Assembly: GCA_046881825.1 (NCBI GenBank)
Contig: JBKSMS010000010.1
Coordinates: forward strand, 12,924 to 76,923
Direction: 5' to 3'
DNA length: 64,000 nt
DNA from: Alphaproteobacteria bacterium
GTDB taxonomy: Bacteria > Pseudomonadota > Alphaproteobacteria > Rs-D84
Shown: piece by piece, positions 3,273 to 47,113 of the stretch
How the letters are laid out: each line of letters starts with the position of its first letter
How positions within the stretch are numbered: the first letter of the stretch is position 1
The notes under the pieces: generated by a model
Database searches by the model: none
Seen by the model: the letters and a program-made list of their open reading frames with translations, nothing else
What the model was told of the DNA's origin: nothing
Translations under genes and position numbers: made by a program

Positions 3273-3283
<11 letters not shown>
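3077..3283 (+). CDS. Hypothetical small protein immediately upstream of and overlapping the recombinase gene
   Basis: 68-aa ORF, translationally coupled to the recombinase. Confidence 0.3.
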
Positions 3284-4901
<1,618 letters not shown>

Positions 4902-9307: not shown

Positions 9308-9318
9308 AGGTGGGAAAC

Positions 9319-10020: not shown

Positions 10021-10024
10021 AAAT

Positions 10025-11650: not shown

Positions 11651-11654
11651 AATC

Positions 11655-25739: not shown

Positions 25740-25767
25740 TTGCAAAGTGAAAAAAGTTTGATATAAT
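25740..25767 (+). promoter_or_regulatory. Sigma70-like promoter TTGCAA-16-TATAAT, driving the tRNA(CAT) gene
   Basis: Hexamers read directly. The -10 element ends 10 nt before the tRNA 5' end. Confidence 0.55.
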
Positions 25768-25777
25768 GCGTTGCACT

Positions 25778-25852
25778 GGCAGCGTAGCTCAGTGGTAGAG
25801 CAGAGGAATCATAATCCTTTGGTCGGGGGTCCGAATCCCTCCGCTGCTACCA
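25778..25852 (+). tRNA. tRNA with a CAT anticodon. It is elongator Met or Ile2-lysidine type; the acceptor and anticodon-stem pattern resembles ileX-type tRNAs. CCA is encoded.
   Basis: GGCAGCGTAGCTCAGTGGTAGAGCAGAGGAATCATAATCCTTTGGTCGGGGGTCCGAATCCCTCCGCTGCTACCA gives a complete cloverleaf. Confidence 0.85.
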
Positions 25853-25861
25853 GAATAAACA

Positions 25862-25886
25862 AACGACCCGATGGGTCGTTTTTTTA
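25862..25886 (+). terminator. Rho-independent terminator after the tRNA
   Basis: acgaccc-gat-gggtcgt followed by TTTTTTT. Confidence 0.65.
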
Positions 25887-26021
25887 TTCTGTGCGTCGGG
25901 GTGGTGAAGGGCACCCAGATGGGGGTCCGACCCGCAGGCAAAAGGCAGACAGAAGTATGCCGGTCCCCCGAAGTTTTAACGAAGGGGGATTTGCCCAGGG
26001 GAATGAAGCGCAGCGGAATCA

Positions 26022-26039
26022 ATCCCTCCGCTGCTACCA
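26022..26039 (+). repeat. Direct partial copy no. 1 of the tRNA(CAT) 3' end (18/18 nt, atccctccgctgctacca). An att-type scar.
   Basis: Exact match to tRNA positions 59-76. It is preceded by a GC-rich spacer holding a degenerate T-arm copy (gggggtccgaccc). Confidence 0.7.
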
Positions 26040-26045
26040 AAATTC

Positions 26046-26073
26046 AAACCGCCCGTTTGGGCGGTTGTTTTTA
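26046..26073. terminator. Bidirectional terminator hairpin
   Basis: aaccgccc-gttt-gggcggtt followed by GTTTTTAT. The same stem recurs at 33126-33144. Confidence 0.55.
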
Positions 26074-26934
26074 TCGTTCTTCATTTATTTCAAATACACT
26101 CATTTCCATTCTTTCATTGAAAACGCATCTGGCCTTGTATTTTAATTCTAGATTAAAATCGTTCTTTGCCGAGAACCCAGATATCACTGTCAGACCATGT
26201 TGGTCTATGTGATGAGTGCTGCGTGAGATACTTCTTTTGAATGTTGATGGATTGGTTAGTGTTGATTTGGCTCTTTCATCGCAAAGGCTCATATAGTCAT
26301 ATATTTTATCTTCATATTTTTCTTGGACAGTTAGTGCTTTTGCGCCGCTATTGATTTCTTGTTCTGTTAAATAGAACTTGTGTTTGCCACATGCACCATA
26401 AATAACAACATTATCTTTACTGCCCATATCCTCAACCAATGATACAGATATCAGTTTGTCGCAGTTTTTATTTTTGCGAATTTGTTTTGCTGCTTTGGGT
26501 AATAATGCATTTATTTCTTTAATGCGTTCTACACCATATTTGTCTATGTATTCGTCATATCCCTCGCCACGTTCTGTTCCAATGATGTTTGGCCAAACGG
26601 CGGAATCATCATAGTTAATGCTGTCTTCCTTGGTCCTTGTTTCTTCTTTCTCTGTGTTTTCTGTGGGTTTAGTTTCATTTTCTTCGGCCACTACTTCGTT
26701 GGTCGTATCCGCCTGTTCTGGTTCAACGACAACCGCATATCCAATAAAACCAATTACAGCCAGAACTATCCTTAATGTTTTGTTTATGAAACCATAGTTT
26801 ATTGGTAGCAACATCAAAGCGAACAATAAACCAAAAAGATTAAAGTCAGCAAGTGAGCTTATCAGGAATATTCCACCTATTATCCATCTGATGATATCAA
26901 GAATTTTGTTCTTTGAGTTGTTTTCTTCTTTCAT
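26071..26934 (-). CDS. Hypothetical membrane-anchored protein (island cargo)
   Basis: 287 aa. Two N-terminal TM segments and an acidic low-complexity linker. Confidence 0.45.
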   Translation of the reverse strand: MKEENNSKNKILDIIRWIIGGIFLISSLADFNLFGLLFALMLLPINYGFINKTLRIVLAVIGFIGYAVVVEPEQADTTNEVVAEENETKPTENTEKEETRTKEDSINYDDSAVWPNIIGTERGEGYDEYIDKYGVERIKEINALLPKAAKQIRKNKNCDKLISVSLVEDMGSKDNVVIYGACGKHKFYLTEQEINSGAKALTVQEKYEDKIYDYMSLCDERAKSTLTNPSTFKRSISRSTHHIDQHGLTVISGFSAKNDFNLELKYKARCVFNERMEMSVFEINEER

Positions 26935-27233
26935 ATTGTTCCCTTTATTTTATGTGTTGTTCTGGTTAAGAGCAGAGTACACAAACAATTTGATTTTTTC
27001 CATATTTATTTTCTGAGATTATTTTATCTTGCTTTTCTAAATCAGATTTCTGTATAGTTTAATTCAAGGAAGGAAAGGATAACTGTCAGATGTGGTTATT
27101 TGTTCTGGCTTCTTTGGTTTTTTTGAGAAACAATGACAAAAATGGCGACCATCTGGCCGCCGTTTTTTTTGCATTATTTGCTAATATTCATAAATTATGG
27201 TATTATTGCGGTTAGAATGTATGAGGGATTATT

Positions 27234-27797
27234 ATGAAACGAAATCAAGTGATTTTATTCTATGGTCTGCCGGCAAGTGGTAAATATACGGTTGCAAAAG
27301 AAATTCAGAAAAAATGCGGCGGCGTTTTGTTGGATAACCATTATTTTTATGACTTGTTTGTAGGTATAACAGAAGTTCCAGATGAAATACGTCACGAATG
27401 GTTTCATCGTGTTGGAGATGTTCGCAGGGCTTATATGGATGTGTTAAGAAAGTTTTATCCACGAAAAAAGCAAACGCGATTTATATTTACATCTGTTTTA
27501 TTCCGCGGCGAAAAACTGCCTGCAAATCTACAAAAGTTTGCGCATGATATAAATGCTGATTTTATTCCCATAGAATTAAACGTGCGTAAAGATGTGTTGT
27601 TGAAACGGTGTAATACAGCACAGCGGAAAAAACGCGAAAAAATATCAGACCCGAAACAATATGAAAAGGTGCTGAATAAATGGTTACCAAACGCATTTCA
27701 TTCTAGACATGCCAATAGATTAGTTATAGATGTCAGTGATTTGTCATTGGATAAAACGGTGGCCGCGGTCAGGAAACATCTGCGACAATTTGATTAA
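27234..27797 (+). CDS. P-loop NTPase / small-molecule kinase-like protein (AAA_33 / chloramphenicol-phosphotransferase-like / zeta-toxin-like fold)
   Basis: Walker A FYGLPASGKYT near the N-terminus. 187 aa. Confidence 0.55.
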   Translation: MKRNQVILFYGLPASGKYTVAKEIQKKCGGVLLDNHYFYDLFVGITEVPDEIRHEWFHRVGDVRRAYMDVLRKFYPRKKQTRFIFTSVLFRGEKLPANLQKFAHDINADFIPIELNVRKDVLLKRCNTAQRKKREKISDPKQYEKVLNKWLPNAFHSRHANRLVIDVSDLSLDKTVAAVRKHLRQFD

Positions 27798-27809
27798 AAG
27801 GATACAGAC

Positions 27810-28577
27810 ATGCAAAAATGGGAAATCGCATTAAATAAGTTTTTGGAACGATATATTCATGAACCTTGGTTCGAGGGGGCGTTGTTGTGCGGTTCTTATA
27901 CCACAGGCAACCAGACCAAGTTTTCAGACATAGATGTTGTTATTGTTGGCAAGAATAATATGGGCTGGCAGGAAAAGTCCAATTGCTATGTTGATGGGTT
28001 CTTGATGGAATATACAATCAACCCTGTTTATAAACTGGAAGAATATATGGCAACATATATGAAAAACCATCGCCATATAGACCAGAATATGTTTGTGTAT
28101 GGAAAAATCTTGTATGATAAAAATGGGGTTATGAAAAAACTGCGCCAAAAATGTGTGCGCGATATTAAAAAGCCTTTCAAGCCATATTCAGAATACACAA
28201 AATCTTTTATCAAATACCATCTGTGGGACAAGTATGATGAACTGTTGTCGTTGGATGCGCGCGGATATCATATTGATATGCAATATTGGGCGGTGGTGGA
28301 TGCCTTGATATCTGCATACTATGATTTCAAGAATATGCCGCACCCACCACGCAGTAAAATTGAACCAATCTTGACCGACCCAGAATTTGCAAAGCGATAT
28401 CATATTCAGGCAATGCCGCCCAAGACATTTACAGATAAATTGTTGGCATGTATGAACGCAAAATCCAAGACCGCAAAAATGGACGCGGTAAAGGCATTTT
28501 ATAACTATGTCATGCGTGCTGGCGGTGGATTTGATATTGGCAAATTCCGCGGCTATCAAAAGATTGAAAAACGATAA
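27810..28577 (+). CDS. Nucleotidyltransferase-domain protein resembling aminoglycoside/lincosamide nucleotidyltransferases (ANT/KNTase-like)
   Basis: LLCGSYTTGNQTKFSDIDVVIV fits the G-S-x9-13-D-x-D/E pol-beta NTase signature, with a helical C-terminal domain. The 255-aa size is like KNTase. Confidence 0.6.
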   Translation: MQKWEIALNKFLERYIHEPWFEGALLCGSYTTGNQTKFSDIDVVIVGKNNMGWQEKSNCYVDGFLMEYTINPVYKLEEYMATYMKNHRHIDQNMFVYGKILYDKNGVMKKLRQKCVRDIKKPFKPYSEYTKSFIKYHLWDKYDELLSLDARGYHIDMQYWAVVDALISAYYDFKNMPHPPRSKIEPILTDPEFAKRYHIQAMPPKTFTDKLLACMNAKSKTAKMDAVKAFYNYVMRAGGGFDIGKFRGYQKIEKR

Positions 28578-28587
28578 GGAAACAAAA

Positions 28588-28968
28588 ATGAAACGCGCAA
28601 TTAAATTCAAATTGAAAAATGGTCGGGTTGTGACTATCCGTCTATTGCGTGCCGATGATTATGATGCGTTTGTAAAATTTAATAAAGAGTTTGCAAATGG
28701 ACCCAGCGCAAAAATGAATTTTGAATATCCTGGTGCGCCTGTTGAACCGAAAGAAAACTATGTAAAAGTGTGGTCGAACAAGAACTATTTATACATTGCG
28801 GCATTTGATGGCGAAAAAATAGTCGGCTATGCACAAATTCGCAAATTGATGACAGGTGTAAAATGGCCACGTGGTGGTATGCCAAATGCGGAATATTTTA
28901 AGTTAGAATATGATGGTGAAAAGTTCACCGTAATTGATACGCCGGATTGGTTGTCGCAGGTGGTGTAG
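28588..28968 (+). CDS. Small GNAT-like protein (N-terminal half of an acetyltransferase fold; possibly truncated)
   Basis: IRLLRADDYDAFVKF...LYIAAFDGEKIVGYAQI, without a clear acetyl-CoA P-loop. 127 aa. Confidence 0.35.
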   Translation: MKRAIKFKLKNGRVVTIRLLRADDYDAFVKFNKEFANGPSAKMNFEYPGAPVEPKENYVKVWSNKNYLYIAAFDGEKIVGYAQIRKLMTGVKWPRGGMPNAEYFKLEYDGEKFTVIDTPDWLSQVV

Positions 28969-28978
28969 CGGTCTTGGG

Positions 28979-30097
28979 TTATCTTTCCGGGGATGGCGAT
29001 TGTAATGCGTTGGATTTTTCAATTTCGTCCATCGTAACTGCAAATGCATCGGTGCCGTCTGCGCATTTAATATCAGGTTCAAACCCGTTTGTTTCAAAAT
29101 CTTTTATGCTTAGTTCACGATATACTGCGCCAACAGTGAACTTCATATGTGTATATGGTAATAAAATATATTGGTTGTATCCATATACTTCGCATCCGTT
29201 TGTGTTTGTGCCGACAATGGTTGTTTTGGGATAGTGTTTCATTCTGAAAATAAACATTTCTGCCGAAGAAGAAACGCCACGATTTGTTAATATATATACT
29301 GTATGTCTTGCGTTTTTGGGGTCGTATTTTTGTGTTGGTTTAATACTATTGTCGTGGATTATAAACGGGTCGTCTAGTGAGTCTGTGTCAAAATTGTTTC
29401 CAATTCGTTCTGGATAAAGTTTGTGTACATGCTTTGCATCGGGATTGTTACGAATGATTTCTTTGTTTGCATTTGGATATTTTTGTCCAAGTATATATTC
29501 AGCAATCTTGTCAGTGGGACGATTGTCGCCACCACCACTATCGCGAAGGTCGATGATAAGTGTTTTTGATTGTGACAGAATTGCGCGCCATTGTTTTTCA
29601 AATATTTTGCGTTCCGCGTCTGTCCATCCAGATAGTGTTGGTACTGCTATGATTCCAATATCACCACGTTGTTCGGTATGGAATTTTTTACCGCTTGCAA
29701 TATTTTTTCCGACATTTGGTCTTGGCTTGCGCAGTGCGGTGCGCGCACCCATGTTTTGCCCAACCATGTTCAGTTGTATATGGTTATCTGGTATAATCTC
29801 AATCGCAGGGCGCAGTTGTTCCAGAAATTCTGCCGATGTCATATCGTGTGCATTTTTATGAACATCAATCAATGTCTTCAGGATTTTGCGCTTTAGCACC
29901 TCATTATGAAATGGCCAACCACAATATACATTTATTAAAACTCGTGCAAAGACCGATACTTCATGTTTAACCTGTTCGGCGGTCAGTTTGGTATTTGGGG
30001 TCTTAGATTTTGTGTTCCCGGCTTCAACTAAATCTTCCGTTTCGGAATCTCGTAATAAAAATTCTTCCATTTCACTGATGGTTGGTATTTTGGTCAT
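28979..30097 (-). CDS. S41-family peptidase (C-terminal processing / tail-specific protease-like)
   Basis: LIIDLRDSGGGD and NRGVSSSAEMF (the S41 catalytic Ser region). 372 aa. Confidence 0.65.
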   Translation of the reverse strand: MTKIPTISEMEEFLLRDSETEDLVEAGNTKSKTPNTKLTAEQVKHEVSVFARVLINVYCGWPFHNEVLKRKILKTLIDVHKNAHDMTSAEFLEQLRPAIEIIPDNHIQLNMVGQNMGARTALRKPRPNVGKNIASGKKFHTEQRGDIGIIAVPTLSGWTDAERKIFEKQWRAILSQSKTLIIDLRDSGGGDNRPTDKIAEYILGQKYPNANKEIIRNNPDAKHVHKLYPERIGNNFDTDSLDDPFIIHDNSIKPTQKYDPKNARHTVYILTNRGVSSSAEMFIFRMKHYPKTTIVGTNTNGCEVYGYNQYILLPYTHMKFTVGAVYRELSIKDFETNGFEPDIKCADGTDAFAVTMDEIEKSNALQSPSPER

Positions 30098-30130
30098 ACA
30101 GTCACCATAACTTATTTATTTTACTGAGTA

Positions 30131-30354
30131 TTATTTTAACACAATTTTGGGGTTTTTGCCAGTTGTATATGGATGATTTAAGATGGGTAAAAACTTTACA
30201 TAGAAAAATGCTTAAAAAAGGCGGAAATGTGGGTGGTGTAGCGATTTTTGTTAAAGTGATTTTTGGATTTAATCTGATTAACGCTTATGGACAATTTTAC
30301 ATATACTAGACATAGAAAATTGGTGTGCCGGTGAAAGTGGCGGATTTCTGCGGG
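30131..30354. repeat. Island repeat copy R1 (about 225 bp), immediately 5' of the S41 peptidase start. Followed by tRNA fragment no. 2.
   Basis: Near-identical to 39916-40139. It shares the core ...aaaaactttacatagaaaaatg...gattaacgcttatggacaattttacatatac...gacatagaaaattggtgtgccggtgaaagtggcggatttctgcgg with R2 and R3. Confidence 0.85.
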
Positions 30355-30387
30355 GTGCGTGAGGGAAAATACTTTGTGCGCTGGTAT

Positions 30388-30414
30388 ATCATAATCCTTT
30401 GGTCAGGGGTTCGA
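30388..30414 (+). repeat. Partial tRNA(CAT) copy no. 2 (anticodon loop to T-arm, 25/27 nt, diverged)
   Basis: atcataatcctttggtcaggggttcga versus tRNA atcataatcctttggtcgggggtccga. Confidence 0.6.
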
Positions 30415-30512
30415 CAAAAAAGCAGGTTTTGCAACTTTGTTTTGTTGTTCAAGCGATAATTTAACTCAATTATCTGGGCTTATTGCGGATTTTAAATTTT
30501 TGTTATTTTCTA

Positions 30513-30896
30513 TTACTTTTTTTCAACTAAGCCTCTGTCACTCCATCTTGAAAATAATTTTTTTATTTCTAACACATCGTCATTAGATCTGCTCAATTTT
30601 TGTGCCGATGTAAAATCACCGAAATCCATAAGTTCCATATGCAGCTTGCCGCCGGAATCTCGATAAATTGCAAAATTATGCCATATATCATTATGTATAA
30701 GTCCGTTGTTATTCATATTTTGTATTTCACTTAATATTGTATTTTGTTCTTCGATAGTAATTGGTTTGTTTCTCAAACACTCAAGTATTTCTGCATCCTT
30801 CCTAAGCTCATCAACACTATCTACATGCGTGGCTTCCATAATAAAATATTGTGTATCTGGTGTTCTTGGCAATGTTATTTCAGGATGAGCATCCAT
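30513..30896 (-). pseudogene. Fragment of a protein-kinase-like (APH/Kdo-kinase type) gene, likely a pseudogene
   Basis: GLIHNDIWHNFAI...MELMDFGD (catalytic loop and DFG) in only 127 aa. Frame decay appears downstream. Confidence 0.4.
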
Positions 30897-31061
30897 AAAT
30901 GCTTTCAGTACTGTTTGATCGTCCCATCAGCAGAAACAGATGTTTTCTATTTTTTCAACTTTCGAACTAGGTGAAAGTGTTGTCTTACAAAAGAAAACGT
31001 GCACTTAAGGGCAAGTTTTGAAACTGTGATTATGGTCGGCCAGTATAACGCAAACCTTTTA

Positions 31062-31631
31062 TTATGAATTGTAAAGCAGTTGTTTTATCCAAGAAATCAA
31101 ATTAAATCTTTGTTTTTCTTGTTTTATATATTTGGGTGGAATAATGCCTTTTCTAAGCACAATCATATAATGTCGTACTGCGCCATATAGCAATTCATTT
31201 TTTATATCAACCTTTTCCCATGTTAAAGGCGATGTATCAATTTCATTTGGCTTAACTTTATAAAAATAGTTGTCGCACCCTTTGTGTATATGCAGTTTTC
31301 GACCTTTTTTTGCCAAATCGTCCCGACACCATATTGATTCTACAAGGCCGTTTTTGATTAAGTCGTCCAGTTCAAAAGAAAACAAGATAGAACTTTTTAC
31401 CATTTTTTTCAGAATTGGGTCATTTCCACGCCATTTCACCGGTTCGGTTAAACAAGAAATGCTTCTGCTGCGCCCAGGAAATGTTTTGTCCATCCATGCA
31501 ATAACATCTTTGCGTTTGTTTGATTTTACGTATGATGAATATCGTTTTAGGTCTGTTGGATGCTTTGCGTATGAAAATAAACCATTGGTCAATATAGTGT
31601 TATTCTTTGGGGCATAGTGATACAGTTTCAT
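31062..31631 (-). CDS. Hypothetical protein (island cargo)
   Basis: 189-aa ORF. Confidence 0.4.
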   Translation of the reverse strand: MKLYHYAPKNNTILTNGLFSYAKHPTDLKRYSSYVKSNKRKDVIAWMDKTFPGRSRSISCLTEPVKWRGNDPILKKMVKSSILFSFELDDLIKNGLVESIWCRDDLAKKGRKLHIHKGCDNYFYKVKPNEIDTSPLTWEKVDIKNELLYGAVRHYMIVLRKGIIPPKYIKQEKQRFNLISWIKQLLYNS

Positions 31632-31672
31632 TTTGATTCCTTATAGTAAATATAATAGCAAATTGTGACGAA

Positions 31673-31850
31673 TTTTTACCAGTTAAAAACTTTACATAGA
31701 AAAATGGTTAAAAAATGGCAGAAATGTGAGTGGTGTAGCTGTTTTTAGGTAAGTGCTTTTTGTATTTAATCTGATTAACGCTTATGGACAATTTTACATA
31801 TACCAGACATAGAAAATTGGTGTGCTGTGGGAAGTGGCGGATTTCTGCGG
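31673..31850. repeat. Island repeat copy R2, immediately 5' of the 189-aa gene. Followed by tRNA fragment no. 3.
   Basis: Matches the R1/R4 core but lacks the 25-nt ttgtatatggatgatttaagatgggt segment. Confidence 0.8.
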
Positions 31851-31883
31851 AGTTCGTGTGGAAAAATATTTATGCGCTGAAAT

Positions 31884-31928
31884 ATCATAATCCTTTGGTC
31901 GGGGGTCCGAATCCCTCCGCTGCTACCA
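31884..31928 (+). repeat. Partial tRNA(CAT) copy no. 3 (anticodon loop to CCA, 45/45 nt identical)
   Basis: atcataatcctttggtcgggggtccgaatccctccgctgctacca is identical to tRNA positions 32-76. A terminator hairpin follows at 31936-31965. Confidence 0.85.
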
Positions 31929-32071
31929 AAAATTCAACCCCGATTTATTCGGGGTTTAATTTTTGATATAGTCGCGAGTGGATGAGGACCCCGGGTCCGA
32001 CAACAAGTAGATTTTGGAAGTGAAACGCACCAAAATCGTTACGGTTGCCCCGCAGACACGAAGTGTTGAGG

Positions 32072-32091
32072 GAATCCCTCCGCCGCTACCA
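32072..32091 (+). repeat. Partial tRNA(CAT) 3'-end copy no. 4 (19/20 nt), followed by a hairpin terminator
   Basis: gaatccctccgccgctacca; cccgg-tgtt-ccggg + T6 at 32098-32118. Confidence 0.7.
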
Positions 32092-32456
32092 GAATTTCCC
32101 GGTGTTCCGGGATTTTTTATTTAACAAAAATTTCCCGATTTCGCCCGAATTTATCAGTTTTAGCAGATATATTTACATGCGTAATCCTTTTGCTTGCTTT
32201 ACACTATGAATTATAAAGGGGAATACACAGAAAGTCGCGGCAAAAGGCTGCGAACGATGACAAAGGTTTACAAAGGGGTATGACTCTTTACAAAAGTGAT
32301 ATAAATGTATTTAAAAGTTTTTCATATGAACAATAAAATAGTACTTGATTTTTTGTATCCATTTGGATACAATACGGATGTATAATAAACCAAAAAGGAT
32401 TAAGATGAAAAGAAGGGGCGTAGAGGCTGGACGTTATCAGTCGGGAGAAAAACAAA

Positions 32457-32750
32457 ATGGTAATCATAGAAACAATAGAATACAGTAAATGGTTTGATAA
32501 ATTAAAAGACGGAAAAGCAAAGGCAAAGATAGGTGTTCGGGTTCGGCGCATCGCGGCACAGGATCACTTTGGTGATTTTAAACCGGTTGGTGATGGGATT
32601 TGTGAATTGCGTATAGATTACGGTCCTGGATATAGAATTTATTATACACAGCGTGGTGAAGAGATTGTCTTGCTGTTGATCGGGGGCGATAAGTCAACGC
32701 AGCAATCAGATATAAAAAAGGCTAAACAAATTTTGGCAAACTACCAGTAG
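32457..32750 (+). CDS. Type II toxin-antitoxin toxin, RelE/HigB-like ('addiction module killer', COG3657-type)
   Basis: 97 aa, IEYSKWFDKL...GDGICELRIDYGPGYRIYY pattern. It comes first of a pair with an HTH antidote gene. Confidence 0.7.
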   Translation: MVIIETIEYSKWFDKLKDGKAKAKIGVRVRRIAAQDHFGDFKPVGDGICELRIDYGPGYRIYYTQRGEEIVLLLIGGDKSTQQSDIKKAKQILANYQ

Positions 32751-32804
32751 CAATAAATACTACTGCGTTAGCAAAACAAAAAATATTACTCAAAGGAGTA
32801 AGGA

Positions 32805-33122
32805 ATGAAAAACGTAAAAAAGGCGACAGAATGGAATATTCTTGATCACCTTAAAACAGAAGAAGATATCGCTAACTATCTAGAGGCTGCATTAGAAGAA
32901 AATGATATAGAATTTTTCTTAATTGCTCTTGGTGATGTTGCAAAAGCACGTAGCATAAATAAGATAGCAAAAGAAATAGGGGTAGGACGCGAATCTTTGT
33001 ATAAAAGTTTCTCTGGCGCACGTCGTCCAAATGTAGAAACTGTTTTTAAAGCAATAGATGCGTTAGGTTTAAAAGTTAATTTTACACCTAAAAGTACATA
33101 TAATCAAAGTGTAGCAGCATAA
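32805..33122 (+). CDS. HigA-family antitoxin (XRE-type HTH 'addiction module antidote')
   Basis: 105 aa, LGDVAKARSINKIAKEIGVGRESLYKSFSG HTH. It lies immediately downstream of the toxin and is followed by a terminator at 33126-33150. Confidence 0.7.
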   Translation: MKNVKKATEWNILDHLKTEEDIANYLEAALEENDIEFFLIALGDVAKARSINKIAKEIGVGRESLYKSFSGARRPNVETVFKAIDALGLKVNFTPKSTYNQSVAA

Positions 33123-33207
33123 TATACCGCCCGTTTTGGGCGGTTTTTTGTATATTGTGTTTATGATTAAATTCTGATACTATTATACCTGTATAAAGAG
33201 GTGTATT

Positions 33208-33990
33208 ATGAAGATTCCCGCAAAGTTTATAAAAAGAGCAAATGAACAATTAAAAAAGTATCAGGTTATTGTTAGAAAATTAAAAAGACAAGAAGTTAAT
33301 GAGACGGATACAGTTAAAGTTATTAACGATATTTTTGCGGATCTTTTTGGATATGATAAATATACCGAAATAACTAGTGAATATGCAATTCGTGGAACCT
33401 TTTGTGATTTGGCAATAAAGCAACAAAGTGGTAAGATTTACATGTTAGTAGAAGCAAAAGGGGTGTCTATTCCTTTAAAAGAAAATCATATTAAACAGGC
33501 TACAGATTACGGTGTTAATCATGGAACAAAGTGGGTTGTATTAACAAATTCTGTAGATTGGAAGGTTTATAAAATTAAATACAGTCAACCAATAGAACGA
33601 GAATTGGTTTTTGAATTCAATTTATTAGACATGGATTTAAAAAAAGAAAAACAACTTGAGGTTGTTTTTGCTCTTAGTAAAGAAGGTCAGGATCTTTCTG
33701 TAATAGATGAGATTTATTCAAATAATCAAGTGAAAAATAAGTATGTCCTTGCGGGGTTGATAGATAGTCCTGAGATATATAAGCTTATAAAAAAACAAAT
33801 AAAGCTGTATTTTGAAAATAGTATCAAAATAACAGATGAAGAGATTTCTAATTTTATAAAGTTTGATATATTTAAGCGAGAGGTTTGGGATAGTGATGAG
33901 GCGAAAGAATATCAAAAGGTTTTGAAAAAGATGATTAAAAAAGCGGAAAAAAAGAAACAGTTATCTGTTGCAAAACAAGATGTGCAATAA
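33208..33990 (+). CDS. PD-(D/E)xK nuclease-fold protein (HsdR-N-terminal-domain-like) with a K-rich tail
   Basis: CDLAIKQQSGKIYMLVEAKG fits D...(hydrophobic)E.K. 260 aa. Confidence 0.45.
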   Translation: MKIPAKFIKRANEQLKKYQVIVRKLKRQEVNETDTVKVINDIFADLFGYDKYTEITSEYAIRGTFCDLAIKQQSGKIYMLVEAKGVSIPLKENHIKQATDYGVNHGTKWVVLTNSVDWKVYKIKYSQPIERELVFEFNLLDMDLKKEKQLEVVFALSKEGQDLSVIDEIYSNNQVKNKYVLAGLIDSPEIYKLIKKQIKLYFENSIKITDEEISNFIKFDIFKREVWDSDEAKEYQKVLKKMIKKAEKKKQLSVAKQDVQ

Positions 33991-34028
33991 AATAATATAA
34001 AAATAAATGAGCGCCATACGGCGCTCAT

Positions 34029-37000
34029 TTATTTACTCTCTTGTTCTATAAACTTTTTTAATTTAATAACTTCCCTATCTTTTGATCTAAACCAACTTGT
34101 TGACCATATTCTATAGAATTTATATCCATAGCTTTCTAGAATTTTTTGACGCTGCATATCTTCTGCAAACGCTTCTTCAGAGCCATGATATGCTTTCCCG
34201 TCACATTCCAGAGCTATATCCTTGCCGCCAACTTTCAACAAAAAGTCAAGTCTATATCCCCCAACTTTGTATTGAGGCTTAATAGCATCTTGTGGCAGTA
34301 TTTTTAATAACTCTTCATACACTTCTTCTTCAAATGGCGATTCTGTTAATCCTTCAGCGGAACTATTTGTATCACGTCTAGGTGTTTCATAAGAGTATTC
34401 TTTTATCGTTTTTAAAACAGTATCTACTGTTGCAAGATCGCCAAGTGCATGTGCTTTCACATAGGCTAAGTAAGCATAAAATACAGCTATGCGGTTGTTT
34501 TCCTGCTTTTCTTCTAATCTGGATTTATAGTCAGCAAATTTCATCTCTGGAATTGAGGTCACTAAAAACAGTTGCTGTTTTGCTCGTGTTATAAGTACAT
34601 TAAGCAGCCTATATCCTTCATCCCTATTTATAACAAACTGTTCTTTAAACTTACCGTCATGAGCAGGTCCGTATGTTGTGGAAATAATGATAATATCTCT
34701 TTCGTCACCTTGGATATTTTCTAGATTCTTTACAAACAAAGGATCTTTATGTTGTTCCAGTTCTGCATATATCTTGGCGAATTCTGTATCTTCTGCTGCA
34801 ACCTCATGTAACATCAATTTAATTAAATTGCGTTGCTGCACATTAAATGTTGCAATACCAACAGATGGCAGTTTCCCAGGATACATGGTAGGCAATGCTT
34901 TTATTATCTCAATAACTTTATATGCCTCCTTTTCATTCATTCTATCTGCATACACACCATCAACATGGTAATATGTAAATGGGGTATTTGTAGCAATGCG
35001 TGCAGGCAATGGACACAAATTACAGCCATAAAAAGCGCAATTTGAAAACTCAATCAATGCAGGATGCTTACTTCTGTAATGGAAATCTAAATAAGAAGCA
35101 AATTCTTTGACATTTTTAAAGCCCTCTGCGTATTCAAGTAAAGATTCTGAGTCAAGTGGCGCTAAATCAAAACCGTCGCCATCACCATCGTTCCCATCAA
35201 CGTTCCCTCCATCCATATTTTTTGCAAACCAGTTAGACGGAGGCATCTGATGTTTATCTCCTGCTATGATTTTATATTGTCCACGTATCATTGAGGTGTA
35301 AACATCTTCTATTCTTAACTGACTGGCCTCATCAAATATTACCAGATTAAACAGCCCCTGTTTTAATGGAAGCAAGGCATTCGCAACAATTGGGTTAACC
35401 ATTATTACGGGGAATAAATCAGTAAATGCGTCAAACTCTTTGTCAATAATTTGTCTCAAAGACAGTTTCTTAGCGTATTTTCCTCTTTTTAATGCAAACA
35501 ATGTTTTGAAACCATATTTACTATCCAGGGTCGCAATTGCATTTTCTCGTTCATAATACCAGGTTTTAAAGATTTTTTTCGTATTATTCTTTTGTAGTTT
35601 TATAAACAACTCTCTCAATGAGGCCAATTCTGGCTCTTTTGCAGATGTTAAAAACTGTTTCTTTGTCTTTTTGGCATGATTTAACAAGAAGTAATAATAA
35701 TAAACAGCTTGGAATAAATCTTCCCAATAAGAATCATCTTGCTCAAGCAAAAGAGAATCAAACAATACTACATCTCTTTTATACTCTTGTAGCCATGAAA
35801 CATATATTTCTAACTCATCAAGTTTATCTAACAACGAAACTAGCTTTGTCTTAATTTTTTCCGCACACTCTTTGGCACCTTGGGTTGTTCTATAATCAAA
35901 ATCCTTTGCTACAACACCATTAAAACTATTAGCAACAGTATCCTTTACCTCTTCGTAAATCTGTTGGCCTGCCACTATAGAGTTTAATATATTGTGCAGA
36001 TTATCTACTTCAGATACACGTTCTTTAAGCTTATTTTGTATATCTTCTAGTTCTAATGCCAGATTTTTCTGTCGTGCATGCAAATCCGCGCTTATATCAT
36101 TTACATTGCTTTCAATATCAGCTAAATGAGATCTGATATGTTCATAAATTAGATTTTGAGTATTTTTGGTTTGAATAGAAACGTTTTCTGCTTCTTTCTT
36201 GATCGATAGCAGGGCAGCACTTTCACAGTCATTATACGAACAAAAATCTCCATATTTTGTTGTATACTCATCTATTTTTCTTAACAACTGCTTGTAATTC
36301 TTACGTACTTTTTTTGCATATTTATGACTTTCTGAAAGCTTTTTAGAGAAAAGCCTTGTTACAATATTTGAATTATAAGCATTAAAATCTTCCCCAAGTA
36401 TTTCAATTCCTTCTGCAAAAGCCTCTTGAATATCTTCTACATCATCCAAAATAGAATAGAGTCTTCTAAGCTTATCCTTAGCATTTTCATCTAACTGCAT
36501 ACTTTCGCATTTGCAATTAAATCTTCTGGCAACAGTAAGTATATCTTCACATAACGCTCCTGCGCTTTTAATCCAATCAGCCAGATTATCTTTACTTTCT
36601 GTTATTATATTGTGTTTATTTTGCAATTCGCTTAATTTTACCTGACATTCGCGCATAGCATTATCAAAATGTTGTACACTTTGAATTTTTCCTTTATCTA
36701 CAATTTGTAGCAAATCAATATCCTTGCCACAAGACTTTGAAACGATAGATAGTTGATTGTTTATTTCGGCAATCATATCAACAAATTCTTGTTTTTTACC
36801 TACACTCAATAATTTTGAAGCGTTTGTGGAGTTTGCCTTTATTTCATTACAAATCCCCAAGGACTTGGATAGTTTATCAGTCTTGGTATACATGGATGTT
36901 GTGCCAATATCTAAGATTGTATTATCAATAAAGTTGATAAGCTTATTGATATGCTTTACGGCAACATCTATATTCTTTTCAATCAAAATTTTTCCACTAA

Positions 37001-38606
37001 CAGATAAATCGATTTCTTTATCCAAATTAAACAAGTCAAACGAGGTTATATCTATATGCTTGCAGGCGGAATGTGTTTCTGCCCCACGTTTGACCAAATT
37101 ACAATAATTTACAAATTCTGCAGAATTAAATTCCCAACCTGTGGCTACATGCTCCAGATTATCTCTAATTGATGCAAAGGCATCACGTTTGGATTTCTTT
37201 AAGAACAAACCAATCAAATCAGACCATGTTTTTTGTTCAAAAATAGGTTCGCTAGAAGCTTTGTATGAAGCGTTAATAGAATCTCTTAATCTATTAAAAT
37301 TTTCTTGATCTCTTTCAAACTCCACTTCATTAAATGCTTTGGTCGGATTGTATTGCTGTAAAGCACGTGCTTTGTCGACCACAGCTCTGCGGTCTTTGTT
37401 AACATCATCAACAACTATACAAAAAGTGTCTAAACCCTTTTCCGACAAATTGTGTTTCAAGACGTCTAATGCAGTTTTCTTCTCACAGACAACCAATGTC
37501 TTGGCACCATTTGCCAGTGCGTTAGAAATGATCGCTGAGATTGCCTGACTCTTACCTGTCCCCGGAGGCCCTTGAATAATCTTAAACTCATTGTCATTTA
37601 GAGTTCTTATTATTTCTTCTTGACTAGGATCTGTATCAAAGGAAGCCTCAGATGAAGTAGAAAAACGCTCTAATTCCATATCTTCCGCATTAAACTGATC
37701 TATATTTTTTTGTAATTCTAAAACGGATTCTATAATGGTTTCTTTTTGTGAACGAAAAAGCCCAAAGACCCCAGACCACTGAACAAAACCATTACCAGAG
37801 CATAATTTTTCCAAATGCTCTTTTGTGCCAACAGGTTCCAATTTCAGAGACAGATCGTCAAATTTTATATTCAATTTCTTCAATATATCCTTCAGATACT
37901 TTTGTATTTCATTTTCTTGAAGTACCCCATCGTCAATATCTTCTATATCCAGGCGTTCCAATTGAAGTTTTTCTGAATTTTCAATGTACGACATTAAAAT
38001 TTCATTCATTTTGATTGGACTATCTTCGTTTTTTGAAATAATCCACTCATTTTTACGGTTAGACTTTCTGATATCCAGCGACCACAAGAACAAAGGAGCT
38101 ACGATAGTCTTTTTTTCATCTTTCTTGTCTGGCAATACCAGCAATGGATACCCAAAGGCAAAATTTTTCAGTCCGGTATCAATAAAAGAATCTTCGTTAT
38201 CTATAGCCATAGAATCTAGGCGCTTTCCAACGATAACAAGCCTGTCTTTTATTTCTGCATCCATACGGGTTAATTTCTTGTCTTCCCAAGAAAATCGGAA
38301 ATCAAATTTATCTTTAGTCAATAGAGTTTCTAAAAACTTCTTTGCATATGTATCTTTTTTTGTTTTTGATGTGTCAGAAAACAAATTTAAATCTGGTTCT
38401 ACGTTGGCTATAGATAAGTCGCATAAATCTAATCTGTTTTTTAGTCGACCAGGCACAGCCATCAAATGTATTGGCGTACGTCCAACCAAGCCTGTTAATT
38501 TCTTATAAATGCCTTCCAAAAACTTTTTATCAAATTTTATTTGTGACTTCATGATAAACTCCGACACTATTTCTTTAATTATACAATATATATTCCTAAT
38601 AATCAA
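34029..38606 (-). CDS. Giant (1525 aa) Upf1-like SF1 helicase with an N-terminal DUF4011-like region and a C-terminal DUF559/Vsr-like endonuclease domain. Defense-island type.
   Basis: Walker A GPPGTGKS, DEASQ (motif II), GDKHQMPP (motif III), ITRAK (motif VI), and a C-terminal GGYRLDF...ECDG.AYHG..E....D..R...L...G restriction-endonuclease-like patch. Confidence 0.85.
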   Translation of the reverse strand: MIIRNIYCIIKEIVSEFIMKSQIKFDKKFLEGIYKKLTGLVGRTPIHLMAVPGRLKNRLDLCDLSIANVEPDLNLFSDTSKTKKDTYAKKFLETLLTKDKFDFRFSWEDKKLTRMDAEIKDRLVIVGKRLDSMAIDNEDSFIDTGLKNFAFGYPLLVLPDKKDEKKTIVAPLFLWSLDIRKSNRKNEWIISKNEDSPIKMNEILMSYIENSEKLQLERLDIEDIDDGVLQENEIQKYLKDILKKLNIKFDDLSLKLEPVGTKEHLEKLCSGNGFVQWSGVFGLFRSQKETIIESVLELQKNIDQFNAEDMELERFSTSSEASFDTDPSQEEIIRTLNDNEFKIIQGPPGTGKSQAISAIISNALANGAKTLVVCEKKTALDVLKHNLSEKGLDTFCIVVDDVNKDRRAVVDKARALQQYNPTKAFNEVEFERDQENFNRLRDSINASYKASSEPIFEQKTWSDLIGLFLKKSKRDAFASIRDNLEHVATGWEFNSAEFVNYCNLVKRGAETHSACKHIDITSFDLFNLDKEIDLSVSGKILIEKNIDVAVKHINKLINFIDNTILDIGTTSMYTKTDKLSKSLGICNEIKANSTNASKLLSVGKKQEFVDMIAEINNQLSIVSKSCGKDIDLLQIVDKGKIQSVQHFDNAMRECQVKLSELQNKHNIITESKDNLADWIKSAGALCEDILTVARRFNCKCESMQLDENAKDKLRRLYSILDDVEDIQEAFAEGIEILGEDFNAYNSNIVTRLFSKKLSESHKYAKKVRKNYKQLLRKIDEYTTKYGDFCSYNDCESAALLSIKKEAENVSIQTKNTQNLIYEHIRSHLADIESNVNDISADLHARQKNLALELEDIQNKLKERVSEVDNLHNILNSIVAGQQIYEEVKDTVANSFNGVVAKDFDYRTTQGAKECAEKIKTKLVSLLDKLDELEIYVSWLQEYKRDVVLFDSLLLEQDDSYWEDLFQAVYYYYFLLNHAKKTKKQFLTSAKEPELASLRELFIKLQKNNTKKIFKTWYYERENAIATLDSKYGFKTLFALKRGKYAKKLSLRQIIDKEFDAFTDLFPVIMVNPIVANALLPLKQGLFNLVIFDEASQLRIEDVYTSMIRGQYKIIAGDKHQMPPSNWFAKNMDGGNVDGNDGDGDGFDLAPLDSESLLEYAEGFKNVKEFASYLDFHYRSKHPALIEFSNCAFYGCNLCPLPARIATNTPFTYYHVDGVYADRMNEKEAYKVIEIIKALPTMYPGKLPSVGIATFNVQQRNLIKLMLHEVAAEDTEFAKIYAELEQHKDPLFVKNLENIQGDERDIIIISTTYGPAHDGKFKEQFVINRDEGYRLLNVLITRAKQQLFLVTSIPEMKFADYKSRLEEKQENNRIAVFYAYLAYVKAHALGDLATVDTVLKTIKEYSYETPRRDTNSSAEGLTESPFEEEVYEELLKILPQDAIKPQYKVGGYRLDFLLKVGGKDIALECDGKAYHGSEEAFAEDMQRQKILESYGYKFYRIWSTSWFRSKDREVIKLKKFIEQESK

Positions 38607-38649
38607 TTATTCCAGGCTAGGTTAATGAAACTGTATATATTTGTATTTG

Positions 38650-38795
38650 GTATGATTAAGTAGGGGTAAAAACTTTACATAGAAAAATGGTTAAAAAATG
38701 GCGGAAATGTGAGTGGTGTAGCGGTTTTTAGGTAAGTGCTTTTTGTATTTAATCTGATTAACGCTTATGGACAATTTTACATATACTGGACATAA
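38650..38795. repeat. Island repeat copy R3 (truncated), immediately 5' of the giant helicase start
   Basis: Shares ...gggtaaaaactttacatagaaaaatggttaaaaaatggcggaaatgtgagtggtgtagcggtttttaggtaagtgctttttgtatttaatctgattaacgcttatggacaattttacatatactggacata with R2. Confidence 0.8.
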
Positions 38796-38808
38796 TGTTG
38801 GACATGTT

Positions 38809-39888
38809 TTAATAGTCGAATGCCTGTTGTGCTTGTGCCCTTTTTAACTCGTCCATACTGAACGGTCTTTGTTGAACTTGTTTGCCAAGTTCTTCTGTTG
38901 CTGAACGCAATGATTCTGTTCTACGTTCACGTTCTATTCCGCGTTTCTCTTCTATTATTTCTTGCAATTCTTCGGGAGGCAGTTCTTGTTCTTCTGGGGT
39001 TAGGTCGGATAATATTTTTAATTCACGTTCTATTTGTTTGTGCACGCCAGGTGACCAGTATTTTTCGTTTGCTACCTGTGCCAAGAATTTTTTTGCATCT
39101 TCAAGTGAAACGCGACTGGCTTTTTCCAGAAATACTTCGTGGTCAGTAAAAGGTTTGTCCAGTTTCGCCCTAATCATATATGGTTCGCCATTTCTGAACG
39201 TCATCAAATGTTTGAACGATTTGCCAACTTGGAAATCGTCTTTGGAAATTCTTTTTGTAAACTCACCTTTGGGAAAGGTGGGGTTTCTTGGTTCTATTAT
39301 AATCCAATCACCATTATTTAGTTTTACACAAGGAACTGTGTGCCCTGAACGGCCGTTCAGCAAATGGTCCCAGACGGTTGTGAACATAAACTTGACGTAT
39401 TGTTTTCGTTCTGAATGTTCTTTTGTAAATTCATCTATAAACGCAACAGCACCATTTGAACAAGATGTTGTGAAGCCATATTTCATAAATATACCTGGTG
39501 TGGCATTTAATTTATTGCGTTTATCGTCATAGTTTTTGAGGTTTTTTTTCAGTTCTTTTTTGGAAAGTTTTGGTATTACTTTTACGATTTCTTTTATTTC
39601 ATCCCCGATTGTTTTTTTAAATTCTGATGGGGTTTTAGCGTGGCTTTTTTCGTTTCTTTGAATTTTTTTGAATAAAACACACCAAATAAATACATCAAGG
39701 TGTTCGAGTGGTTCGTGTTCTGTTTTGCCAGTTTTGTTTAATATATGCTGGTTCGCGGCTGCGATTAACGTAGGCTCTGTTTTTAATGCATCGGTGATAA
39801 GATTTTTTAAACTGCTCAATCCTGTTTTTTTGTCTCTTAACTTGTTTATAGTTTCGTTTATTGCGGATAATCTTTCTTCGTCTGTCAT
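38809..39888 (-). CDS. Hypothetical protein (island cargo)
   Basis: 359-aa ORF with no motif recognised. Confidence 0.45.
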   Translation of the reverse strand: MTDEERLSAINETINKLRDKKTGLSSLKNLITDALKTEPTLIAAANQHILNKTGKTEHEPLEHLDVFIWCVLFKKIQRNEKSHAKTPSEFKKTIGDEIKEIVKVIPKLSKKELKKNLKNYDDKRNKLNATPGIFMKYGFTTSCSNGAVAFIDEFTKEHSERKQYVKFMFTTVWDHLLNGRSGHTVPCVKLNNGDWIIIEPRNPTFPKGEFTKRISKDDFQVGKSFKHLMTFRNGEPYMIRAKLDKPFTDHEVFLEKASRVSLEDAKKFLAQVANEKYWSPGVHKQIERELKILSDLTPEEQELPPEELQEIIEEKRGIERERRTESLRSATEELGKQVQQRPFSMDELKRAQAQQAFDY

Positions 39889-39915
39889 GGTTGCTCCTGA
39901 TGATTTATTTTATTG

Positions 39916-40139
39916 ATATTTTAACACAATTTTGGGATTTTTGCCAGTTGTATATGGATGATTTAAGATGGGTAAAAACTTTACATAGAAAAATGGGGCA
40001 AAAATGGCGGAAATGTGAGTGGTGTAGCGATTTTTGTTTTAGTGAATTTTGTATTTAATATGATTAACGCTTATGGACAATTTTACATATACTGGACATA
40101 GAAAATTGGTGTGCCGGTGAAAGTGGCGGATTTATCCCG
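39916..40139. repeat. Island repeat copy R4, immediately 5' of the 359-aa gene. This is the right end of the island, and no tRNA fragment follows.
   Basis: Near-identical to R1 over about 220 bp. Confidence 0.85.
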
Positions 40140-40372
40140 GTTTTTCGTTCAAGAATTTCTTGACTTTTTGATGTTTGCAGGGCAAAATATCTGCCGTGTG
40201 ACATGCTGATGCGACTGACAACCGCGGAGTGTTATATAAATCTAAAAAGTAAAAAAAGCAGGGTGGCACCGCGCGAAAAAATCTTAGCGCCCCTGTGTTT
40301 TAAGATTTGAATTGGTGCCGCATCCAATAGATTTTTACGGCACCGAAGCAAAAACAAAAAAGGTGTAGTAAA

Positions 40373-46714: not shown

Positions 46715-47113
46715 ATGAAAGAATACATTTTAAATAATTTAGAAGAAACTCATAATTGGGCAAAAGATTTTGCAAAAACTTTGCGTGCACCACAAACTGT
46801 TGCTTTGCATGGTGATTTGGGTATGGGAAAATCTGAAATAGCGCGCACGATTATTAAAACTTTGCGCGGGTCGGATACTGTTGTCCCAAGTCCAACTTTT
46901 ACTCTTGTTCAAAATTATGATGGGATTTCTCATTTTGATTTATACAGAATAGGCGATGTTTCAGAACTGGAAGAAATTGGATTAAAATATGCAATCGATA
47001 ATGATATCACTTTGATTGAATGGCCAGATGTTGCAAAAGATGTATTGCCAAAAAATACTATACATATTTATATCACCCAAAATGGCGATGGACGAAAATT
47101 AGTGATTCAATAA
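46715..47113 (+). CDS. tsaE: tRNA threonylcarbamoyladenosine biosynthesis protein TsaE
   Basis: LHGDLGMGKSEIAR P-loop. 132 aa. Confidence 0.8.
   Translation: MKEYILNNLEETHNWAKDFAKTLRAPQTVALHGDLGMGKSEIARTIIKTLRGSDTVVPSPTFTLVQNYDGISHFDLYRIGDVSELEEIGLKYAIDNDITLIEWPDVAKDVLPKNTIHIYITQNGDGRKLVIQ

Follow-up and report, generated by a model that had tools for sequence, protein, structure and literature searches.

Integrase-less cassettes in a mosaic island at the tRNA-Met(CAT) gene of Candidatus Enterousia

Downstream of a tRNA-Met(CAT) gene in Candidatus Enterousia lies an island (25.85-40.14 kb) of at least five cassettes (0.9-6.7 kb) and two gene-less mini-elements, with partial copies of the tRNA gene and four copies of a repeat, R, at their junctions and no integrase gene inside. 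The host belongs to order Rs-D84 of the Alphaproteobacteria and comes from the gut of farm animals. Its metagenome-assembled genome (MAG) measures 0.90 Mb (PMC12306168), and the stretch analysed here, the window, covers 64 kb out of this ~0.9-Mb genome; it is matched by MAG GCA_046881865.1 (Candidatus Enterousia 101_22-10). We are highly confident of the anatomy of the island and of the independent acquisition of its parts. With rather less assurance, we favour as the probable mechanism a tandem and nested accretion at tRNA-Met(CAT) of cassettes moved by tyrosine integrases acting in trans.

Anatomy of the island

The tRNA genes were called with ARAGORN and Rfam, and the island proteins were compared with Pfam, PHROGs, NCBIfam and PADLOC. 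Related loci are given L-numbers and form a comparison set of ~30 from Ca. Enterousia and related MAGs. The tRNA gene, its partial copies and the two mini-elements are as follows.

25778-25852, plus strand: intact tRNA-Met(CAT), the integration target, attL side (ARAGORN; Rfam, 66.3 bits)
25853-26039, plus strand: U_A, gene-less mini-element of 187 bp, comprising a terminator (25861-25881), a GC-rich stretch with GGGTCCGA followed by C, and fragment 1
26021-26039, plus strand: fragment 1, tRNA positions 57-75, 19/19 identical
30388-30414, plus strand: fragment 2, tRNA positions 31-57, two mismatches
30388-30440, plus strand: fragment 2 with an insert start, the tRNA sequence breaking off in the T loop and the initial ~20 nt of a B-type T-loop insert (CAAAAAAGCAGGTTTTGCAA) coming next
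31884-31928, plus strand: fragment 3, tRNA positions 31-75, 45/45 identical, att core of the anticodon-loop class
31929-32091, plus strand: U_B, gene-less mini-element, comprising a terminator (31936-31956), a GC-rich stretch with GGGTCCGA followed by C, and fragment 4
32073-32091, plus strand: fragment 4, tRNA positions 57-75, 18/19 identical

A reading made earlier from the sequence only had reported this complete gene with four direct partial copies. ARAGORN, Rfam and the sequence itself confirm all of them with minor corrections, fragment 1 spanning 26021-26039 rather than 26022-26039 and fragment 4 spanning 32073-32091. The 19-mer of the tRNA end occurs four times in the window, against an expectation of 0. 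Thus an intact tRNA and displaced 3′ fragments, all in direct orientation, bound the island, which is the arrangement sought by Islander. The breakpoints fall into two classes. The 45-nt pieces begin at tRNA position 31, the first base of the anticodon loop, and the 19-nt pieces at position 57, in the T loop; both start positions hold in the window and in the ~30 related loci. In catalogued tRNA-gene (tDNA) islands, the A (anticodon loop) and T/J (T loop/junction) crossover subsites are targets of tyrosine integrases (PMC4383910), and the two breakpoints coincide with these recognised subsites. The suggestion that identity starting at the anticodon loop is a tyrosine-integrase att signature is therefore borne out, refined to two att classes. 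Moreover, the truncated pieces of positions 31-57 (window fragment 2, L017 and L024) stop exactly where the 19-nt pieces start, and the full series of tRNA[31-57], insert and tRNA[57-75] is intact in L017 and L024.

The junctions of the island were delimited as follows, R being the P arm and P′ the arm that follows a tRNA end.

26985-27180, plus strand: degenerate junction, a P′ arm of 'type d' that has 87% identity to L006 279-440 and lacks both R and a tRNA fragment
30132-30387, plus strand: R1, full P arm (left extension, R-left, invariant core, R-right)
31684-31883, plus strand: R2, P arm
32092-32200, plus strand: P′ arm of type c, with a terminator at 32097-32112 and TTTACATGCG at 32172-32181
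38640-38800 (junction feature to 38805), plus strand: R3, hybrid junction of R-left, core and a P′-like right part (CATATACTGGACATAATGTTGGACATG), with no tRNA piece
39917-40140, plus strand: R4, P arm with its tRNA piece deleted, GGCGGATTT being joined to the terminator 3′ half ATCCCGGTTTTT; marks the island's right edge

In L006, the type-d arm sequence comes after a 45-nt tRNA fragment. Within the 64 kb, the two invariant cores of R are found only in these four copies (0 expected). R1 and R2 continue directly into tRNA position 31; a tRNA piece is missing from R3 and R4. As had been reported, every copy sits just 5′ of the start of a minus-strand gene, which the coordinates and the positions of the open reading frames (ORFs) confirm.

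Empty sites and exchange among relatives

A 22-mer from the R core was used as a query against GTDB species representatives, JGI metagenomes and IMG/VR. It recovered 19 loci in the GTDB representatives, all in Enterousia or unclassified gut alphaproteobacterial MAGs and often at contig ends, together with two JGI metagenome contigs; no IMG/VR contig was matched. Ten further loci were retrieved via the antitoxin protein. The neighbourhood of the window (PagL, tRNA-Met, tRNA-Thr, aspS, TsaE/AsmA/UvrB) is shared by 12 of the 19 GTDB loci. In the antitoxin loci the usual order is PagL, tRNA-Met, P′ arm, toxin-antitoxin, variable cassettes, a conserved pair of genes for proteins of 165 and 181 aa, tRNA-Thr and aspS. 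The tRNA-Met(CAT) sequence is 100% identical throughout the related loci. In the ~30 loci R lies in this tRNA-Met island; it is therefore specific to the island and is not an intergenic repeat dispersed around the genome.

Empty sites were found in three relatives (L029, L024 and L026), which run from tRNA-Met through a 19-nt piece and P′ into the toxin-antitoxin pair. They are collinear with the window over 25750-25856 and then over 32072-32925. The additional block of the window (25853-32072, 6.2 kb) lies between 19-nt direct repeats. At a smaller scale, the sole difference between L023 and L029 is the mini-element U_A. The cassettes also change neighbours: the cassette with the toxin-antitoxin, HSDR_N and helicase genes lies directly at the tRNA in L026, before the 165/181-aa pair in L017 and before another cassette in L011. 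In most relatives it is tRNA-proximal; in the window it is found mid-island. In no other locus sampled were the tRNA-nearest cassettes of the window (26040-31883) seen, which is consistent with newer arrivals entering at the intact tRNA.

Identities to the window copies separate core genes from cassette genes.

gyrB, core: 78-80%
UDG, core: 73-77%
PagL, core: 66-68%
aspS, core: 72-78%
toxin-antitoxin, cassette: 98-99%, in ten genomes
HSDR_N, cassette: 99-100%
helicase, cassette: 98-99%
359-aa gene, cassette: 96-100%, the 96% being in L002, where its neighbours differ

In L011, L017, L024 and L026, cassette 3 is 98-100% identical to that of the window, whereas the core genes are 72-80% identical. 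Cassette genes that are 96-100% identical in genomes whose core genes are 66-80% identical are the product of recent interspecies transfer. The sequence-only reading had proposed a tandem or nested array of independently acquired elements and had suggested an empty-site comparison. That proposal is now supported from three sides: related genomes lack the 25853-32072 block, the cassettes have differing neighbours, and the identities contrast. R is confined to the tRNA-Met island in related genomes rather than spread genome-wide, and the gene order of the window is not common to its relatives.

Junction structure, recombinases and mechanism

An alignment of 28 R copies reveals an invariant core, TTTTGTATTTAATnTGATTAACGCTTATGGACAATTTTACATATnC, with three alternative modules to its left and two to its right, followed by GAAAGTGGCGGATTTCTGCGG...GCGCTGGTAT and then by tRNA position 31. 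TTTTACATATAC is likewise sequence of the R core, separate from the tRNA loops. The sequences that follow tRNA ends form few types, the commonest being type c (P′), in which a terminator is followed ~80 nt past the CCA by GCAGATTGTTTTACATATACTGGACATAATTTCGGACATAGAAAATATGTTTACATGCG, itself containing the R-core 20-mer. Type c comes after the full tRNA in L004, L020, L024, L026 and L029, after 45-nt fragments in L010 and L011, and after 45- or 19-nt pieces elsewhere. The type-c arm of the window has a deletion between its two TTTACAT repeats; the arm in its intact form carries TTTTACATATACTGGACATAA...GGACATAGAAAATATGTTTACATGCG. Two flanks beginning with gaat, which had been taken earlier for a single type, are in fact different, the one after the full tRNA being the start of a GC-rich mini-element and the one after fragment 4 a type-c arm. 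A block of 20-35 nt (TTTTACATATACTNGACATA / GACATAGAAAAT) is found on both R and P′ arms, ~215 nt apart. Repeats of TTTACATA and GACATAGAAAAT are present in both arms as well. The motif TTTACATAKA occurs eight times in the window, always inside R (0.7 expected). In L018 (760-1560), from another Enterousia MAG, a cassette beside a different, 77-nt tRNA(CAT) has a type-c P′ arm and an R-like core at its sides, and this tRNA may be a second target for these arms.

A census of junctions in 31 sources, where many copies are kin by descent, found 58 core motifs, all of them (58/58) in the orientation of the tRNA. In 18 junctions the R core is followed by tRNA position 31 at a fixed distance of 73-74 nt (73 nt at the fragment 3 junction), compared with ~7 short junctions. 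R, the 45-nt tRNA half and P′ together look like the layout of a lambda-type attP, with the anticodon stem-loop and its dyad symmetry as the putative core. The likeness extends to repeated motifs at about -75 to -190 and +125 to +170 and to their fixed spacing. The earlier description of R was of a conserved 5′ module with which each cargo gene travels. R does appear to hold the upstream region of the neighbouring gene, but on its sequence it is better described as more than this, namely as the P arm of an attP-like junction. Two other identities for these junctions were rejected. For a dif/Xer-like site, whether within the R core or where it meets the tRNA, no convincing XerD arm was seen by eye, and R with the tRNA half is not a chimeric functional tRNA, as the five bases preceding position 31 fail to pair with the 3′ strand of the anticodon stem.

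The mini-elements (~170-190 bp) share one layout: a terminator, a short left part up to the boundary between GGGTCCGA and C, a structured right part of ~80-90 nt at ~58% GC (35% in the genome), and the 19-nt tRNA end. As GGGTCCGA is the 5′ half of the tRNA T arm, each unit reads as a T arm split by an insert. U_A is 94-97% conserved across species; it lies between the tRNA and P′ in L023 and is absent from L029, L024 and L026. Left and right unit parts occur in mosaic combinations joined at the same GGGTCCGA boundary, and one internal hairpin is exchanged for an unrelated hairpin in the same place in L006 and L026. Units related to U_B stand in tandem in L008 (2711-3058), and further copies lie at L017 6135-6270 and L024 12507-12642. 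In L017, L024 and window fragment 2, a unit right part comes directly after tRNA[31-57]. Folding is moderately above that of shuffled sequences (U_A, minimum free energy -61.8 kcal/mol, z = -1.7; U_B, -42.8 kcal/mol, z = -2.8). No Rfam family reached its gathering score for R or for the GC-rich spacers U_A and U_B, the weak hits being at chance level. The CCA-ended spacers were also considered as transfer-messenger RNA (tmRNA) or two-piece tmRNA and rejected: ARAGORN and Rfam called none, and the A and B types pair their 19-nt end differently. Perhaps the units are non-autonomous elements of minimal size that belong to the T-loop att class; alternatively, they may be small RNAs.

Searches of the 15 island ORFs (Pfam, PHROGs, NCBIfam, PADLOC) revealed no domain of an integrase, excisionase or transposase. 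Neither PF00589 nor any other recombinase was found in ~57 further ORFs (L002-L020) or in ten loci taken with ±10 kb (precomputed Pfam), with the exception of a Xer-like gene of L016 outside the island. The earlier observation that no integrase is encoded between 25.85 and 40.15 kb holds, and the domain scans extend it to the inside of the island in all of the ~30 related loci. The L016 gene (943-1794, MAG SIG46) encodes a 283-aa Xer-like tyrosine recombinase (HVLRH...LGH...Y) and lies ~5 kb outside the island, past serS and tRNA-Thr. It is the only one seen and is probably the chromosomal dimer resolvase. The 165/181-aa pair at the distal end of the relatives' islands was rejected as a hidden recombinase, having no family match and, in the first protein, a signal-peptide-like N terminus. 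A phage origin was rejected as well, given that IMG/VR yielded no match to the R core, to the 45-nt tRNA half or to two U motifs, three 20-mer-only matches without flanking similarity being taken as chance.

As the sequence-only reading had stated, the only recombinase found in the window is a large serine recombinase (3273-4901) beside another tRNA; this applies to the ORFs scanned, a few at 54.7-55.2 kb and 59.3-63.9 kb lying outside the scan. It was rejected as the cassette enzyme because it sits at a different tRNA, the initiator tRNA-fMet, with no repeats in common with the island. Its gene (542 aa, plus strand) runs antisense through the whole initiator-type tRNA-fMet (4821-4897, minus strand), such that its last ~27 codons are the tRNA complement. 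Two C5 DNA methylase genes lie just upstream (386-2688), and no partial copy of tRNA-fMet is present in the window. This region looks like the end of a separate integrated element with its att site inside the recombinase gene.

In the mechanism we favour, the island would grow through repeated site-specific integration into the 3′ part of the one tRNA-Met(CAT) gene. On its left, each cassette has a tRNA 3′-end copy with a terminator and a conserved P′ arm; on its right it has R with the displaced tRNA piece. The shared 20-35 nt block on both arms is placed like putative arm-type protein-binding sites. Crossover would take place in the anticodon stem-loop, and a second class of recombination, at the T loop, would leave the 19-nt pieces. 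New units would arrive at the intact tRNA, displacing the older ones outward, hence the mid-island position of the toxin-antitoxin/helicase cassette here. Deletions between short repeats common to both arms may then have produced the degenerate junctions (R3, R4 and 26985-27180). R3 is the equivalent of a deletion between two copies of the shared 20-mer, window positions 38775-38805 matching the P′ core region in L023, L026 and L029. The enzyme would most likely be one or two tyrosine integrases, acting in trans from elsewhere or since lost. A stronger version is possible, and we offer it tentatively: a still-working, integron-like capture of genes at a tRNA, in which promoter-bearing cassettes with a portable ~375-bp attP are exchanged among Enterousia by a recombinase that is encoded elsewhere or is transient. 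The T-loop mini-elements, as miniature integrative elements or small tRNA-like RNAs, would be its second tier.

Several points weigh against accretion by trans-acting integrases. No recombinase able to act on these sites was found within 64 kb of the ~0.9-Mb genome, and a search of GTDB representatives, JGI metagenomes and IMG/VR brought up no autonomous relative with R or P′ beside an integrase. Arm-type sites of lambda-type attP are typically ~10 bp, and a shared block of exact identity over 20-35 nt is long for one. Junctions of R-left, core and P′-right recur (twice in L032 and as R3 in the window), so the core is possibly itself a crossover site or a hotspot of homologous recombination. 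Shared descent of many copies means that the junction counts are not independent events. Moreover, as the data come from MAGs, some junctions may be assembly chimeras; on this point, the island of the window was found again in an independent contig.

In an alternative reading, the tRNA pieces and arms are scars of ancient integrations by elements that once bore integrases, and exchange now proceeds only by DNA uptake or transduction with RecA recombination on tRNA, R and P′ homology. The lack of any integrase in ~30 islands would follow, hybrid and degenerate junctions (R3, R4, 26985-27180, L032) resemble repeat-mediated deletions, and the arms, 85-98% identical over 150-250 nt, suffice for RecA. 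Type IV pilus/type II secretion system-like genes at 8051-12725 in the window could import DNA. However, the ends of the 6.2-kb block and of U_A coincide exactly with 19-nt tRNA-end repeats and not with long homology, and three independent junctions of tRNA[31-57] with an insert break at one T-loop base. Complete attP-like junctions are intact with their fixed spacing, and the intergenic gaps of the island, all <400 nt, leave no room for an integrase fragment or pseudogene. For these reasons we regard dead relics as rather unlikely.

A different crossover site is conceivable, namely the core (TTTTACATATACTNGACATA). One-core circles would then integrate ~80 nt 3′ of tRNA-Met, and the tRNA pieces would be the by-product of one old duplication. 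This would explain why the 359-aa cassette lies between two cores (38776 and 40082) without a tRNA piece, why 'empty' loci have a single core after the tRNA, and why L032, L027, L030 and L031 hold arrays of R-left, core and P′-right junctions (the short junctions, which recur in the last three as well). It would not predict that R-right meets the tRNA exactly at the anticodon loop, nor the 19-nt repeats around the block. Furthermore, the core has no dyad symmetry, and junctions with a tRNA piece are the more numerous (18 vs ~7). We consider it improbable.

R is also the upstream region, and probably the promoter region, of the gene on its left. Among R copies with a gene on the left, 22 of 25 such genes are on the opposite strand and face away, most of them starting at a distance of 60-250 nt from the core. 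A left extension common to R1 and R4 bears a match to CTGGCA-18-TGtTAAAAT right before the start codon, which in R1 (minus strand, 30162-30133) faces the S41 gene. In cassettes 1b and 3 the cargo is convergent, read inward from P′ and from R. A promoter scan gave promoter-like matches that were not above shuffled expectation, a further point against the scheme above, so the promoter role is drawn from gene orientation. That R is at heart a regulatory module (a shared promoter, operator or small RNA) spread by gene conversion, its link to the tRNA being incidental, would account for the 22 of 25 genes starting beside it and for the extended -10-like site in R1 and R4, but is very improbable: R2 shows no excess RNA structure (z = +1.7 on the minus strand, -0.2 on the plus), R has no Rfam match, it occurs only in this island, always oriented as the tRNA is and with constant spacing to tRNA position 31, and the gene start is 60-250 nt away from the part of R that is best conserved, which lies past the likely promoter.

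Known systems, cargo and neighbourhood

Tandem tDNA islands of the Islander type were reportedly described by Williams in 2002. Every such island has a tyrosine integrase of its own, and tandem arrays with three or more members are rare (4/3919; PMC4383910). The present locus resembles them in its intact tRNA with direct 3′ fragments, its A and T/J breakpoints, its tRNA-proximal newer units and the replacement tRNA 3′ end and terminator that each unit supplies. The polymorphism between occupied and empty sites that Islander looks for is seen in L029, L024, L026 and L023; an internal tyrosine integrase is not. Unlike those islands, this one holds at least five units, none with an integrase here or in ~30 related islands, and the units are very small, often of one or two genes. 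Cis-mobilisable elements (CIMEs), with accretion and mobilisation in streptococcal integrative and conjugative elements (ICEs), reportedly go back to Pavlovic in 2004 and Bellanger in 2011. They keep attL and attR but have lost the integration and transfer genes, and they are stacked by accreting site-specifically at a target gene's 3′ end, with chimeric internal att sites between units (PMC5704250). Here, too, each cassette has tRNA-fragment/arm junctions on both sides, and the domain searches detected neither recombinase nor conjugation domains. However, CIMEs are recognisable decayed ICEs or integrative and mobilisable elements, with a related autonomous ICE in the same species, and no autonomous partner was found here in the databases searched. 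The present cassettes look compact and organised (promoter-bearing arms, convergent cargo, internal terminators) and are near-identical across species.

Tycheposons carry a tRNA-proximal integrase and replication genes, and Prochlorococcus islands show fragmented integrases (10.1101/2020.12.28.424599). Common to both are a streamlined genome (0.90 Mb for the MAG), a flexible island beside a tRNA, stacked units split by partial tRNA copies, and adaptive or defensive cargo. The island differs in having neither an integrase nor a replication module, its helicase being a PDC-S37/Hhe-type defence candidate, and in having no link to viral contigs. With integrons it shares small, mostly single-operon cassettes at one chromosomal site, each with a conserved recombination site and no recombinase of its own, and a toxin-antitoxin cassette. 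In contrast to integrons, no intI lies by the array. An integron-style recombinase next to the tRNA was rejected, as the neighbour there is PagL in relatives, and in the window it is a 288-aa protein of unknown function. The putative junction is long, double-stranded and lambda-type with arms, as opposed to a folded attC, only the GC-rich U units being structured, and the cassettes appear to have their own promoters and lie in both orientations. The locus is therefore neither an integron (no intI, no folded attC) nor a tycheposon (no integrase, no replication module). What is unusual in it is the genus-wide absence of an integrase, the compact, organised cassettes and the tier of gene-less mini-elements.

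Ca. Enterousia genomes are <1 Mb and the organisms uncultured, so a 14-kb locus is a large part of the flexible gene pool. It concentrates defence genes that are nearly unchanged among species with a core-gene divergence of 20-30%. If the cassettes were moved in trans, tRNA-targeting integrases could run an integron-like cassette economy in streamlined gut bacteria, comparable to tycheposons in Prochlorococcus. The whole class would escape island finders that depend on an integrase, as Islander-type filters do. The mini-elements offer a simple test case for the minimum size of an integrative element.

The cargo of the island is as follows.

26040-26984, minus strand: cassette 1a, with a type-b terminator (26047-26066) and a 287-aa membrane protein (26071-26934) whose sole match is phrog_29597 (unknown function)
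27181-30131, mixed strands: cassette 1b cargo (Pfam)
27234-27797, plus strand: AAA/kinase-like gene, cassette 1b
27810-28577, plus strand: nucleotidyltransferase gene, cassette 1b
to 28968, plus strand: ORF of 126-153 aa, cassette 1b
28979-30097, minus strand: S41 peptidase gene, cassette 1b
30441-31683, minus strand: cassette 2 cargo, proteins of 127 aa (30513-30896) and 189 aa (31062-31631)
32201-38639, mixed strands: cassette 3 cargo (Pfam)
32457-32750, plus strand: Gp49/HigB-like toxin gene, cassette 3
32805-33122, plus strand: helix-turn-helix antitoxin gene, cassette 3
33208-33990, plus strand: HSDR_N_2 protein gene, cassette 3
34001-34034: bidirectional terminator between the convergent gene sets of cassette 3
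34029-38606, minus strand: helicase-nuclease gene (1507-1525 aa) with an MTES_1575 nuclease domain, cassette 3
38806-39916 (ORF 38809-39888), minus strand: cassette 4 cargo, a 359-aa protein

The genes of cassette 1b were found in no other sampled locus. The helicase-nuclease matches the PADLOC candidate defence families PDC-S37 (6e-137) and Hhe (4e-80). In Pfam, PHROGs, NCBIfam and PADLOC, the 127-aa, 189-aa and 359-aa proteins have no match. Overall, five of the 15 island ORFs match nothing, and for a sixth the sole match is a PHROG family whose function is unknown. The cassettes of relatives carry Macro-domain, Fic, Hsp70-like and DarT genes (L004 3755-4795; L002 184-1371; L006 5174-6481; and one ORF among L002-L019). 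The island is a hotspot of defence and toxin genes genus-wide. The L002 contig (JAFQTD010000033.1, 5144 nt) has an exact 91-nt terminal overlap within R, which makes it a circular pair of cassettes (5053 nt) or else an assembly fragment bounded by repeats.

Past R4, the promoter-like TTGACT-17-CAAAAT is followed by aspS (40373-42142). A weak T-box-leader-like match (40227-40294; 23.6 bits vs a gathering score of 93) lies 5′ of aspS, an essential gene, and would put the island's right edge immediately at its regulatory region. Across the tRNA, between PagL and tRNA-Met, the segment 20000-25677 holds a 1250-aa ORF without a Pfam match, a GNAT gene, an inverted tRNA-Thr and a 288-aa ORF, with a GC content of 46% at 21-23 kb against a background of ~35%. 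In relatives, PagL abuts tRNA-Met, and tRNA-Thr is at the far end of the island. This segment is a second variable or rearranged segment. Finally, the product of 47099-48883 (minus strand; 594 aa) has both FtsA and ribulose-phosphate 3-epimerase matches in the precomputed Pfam annotation, and is an odd fusion or a mis-call.

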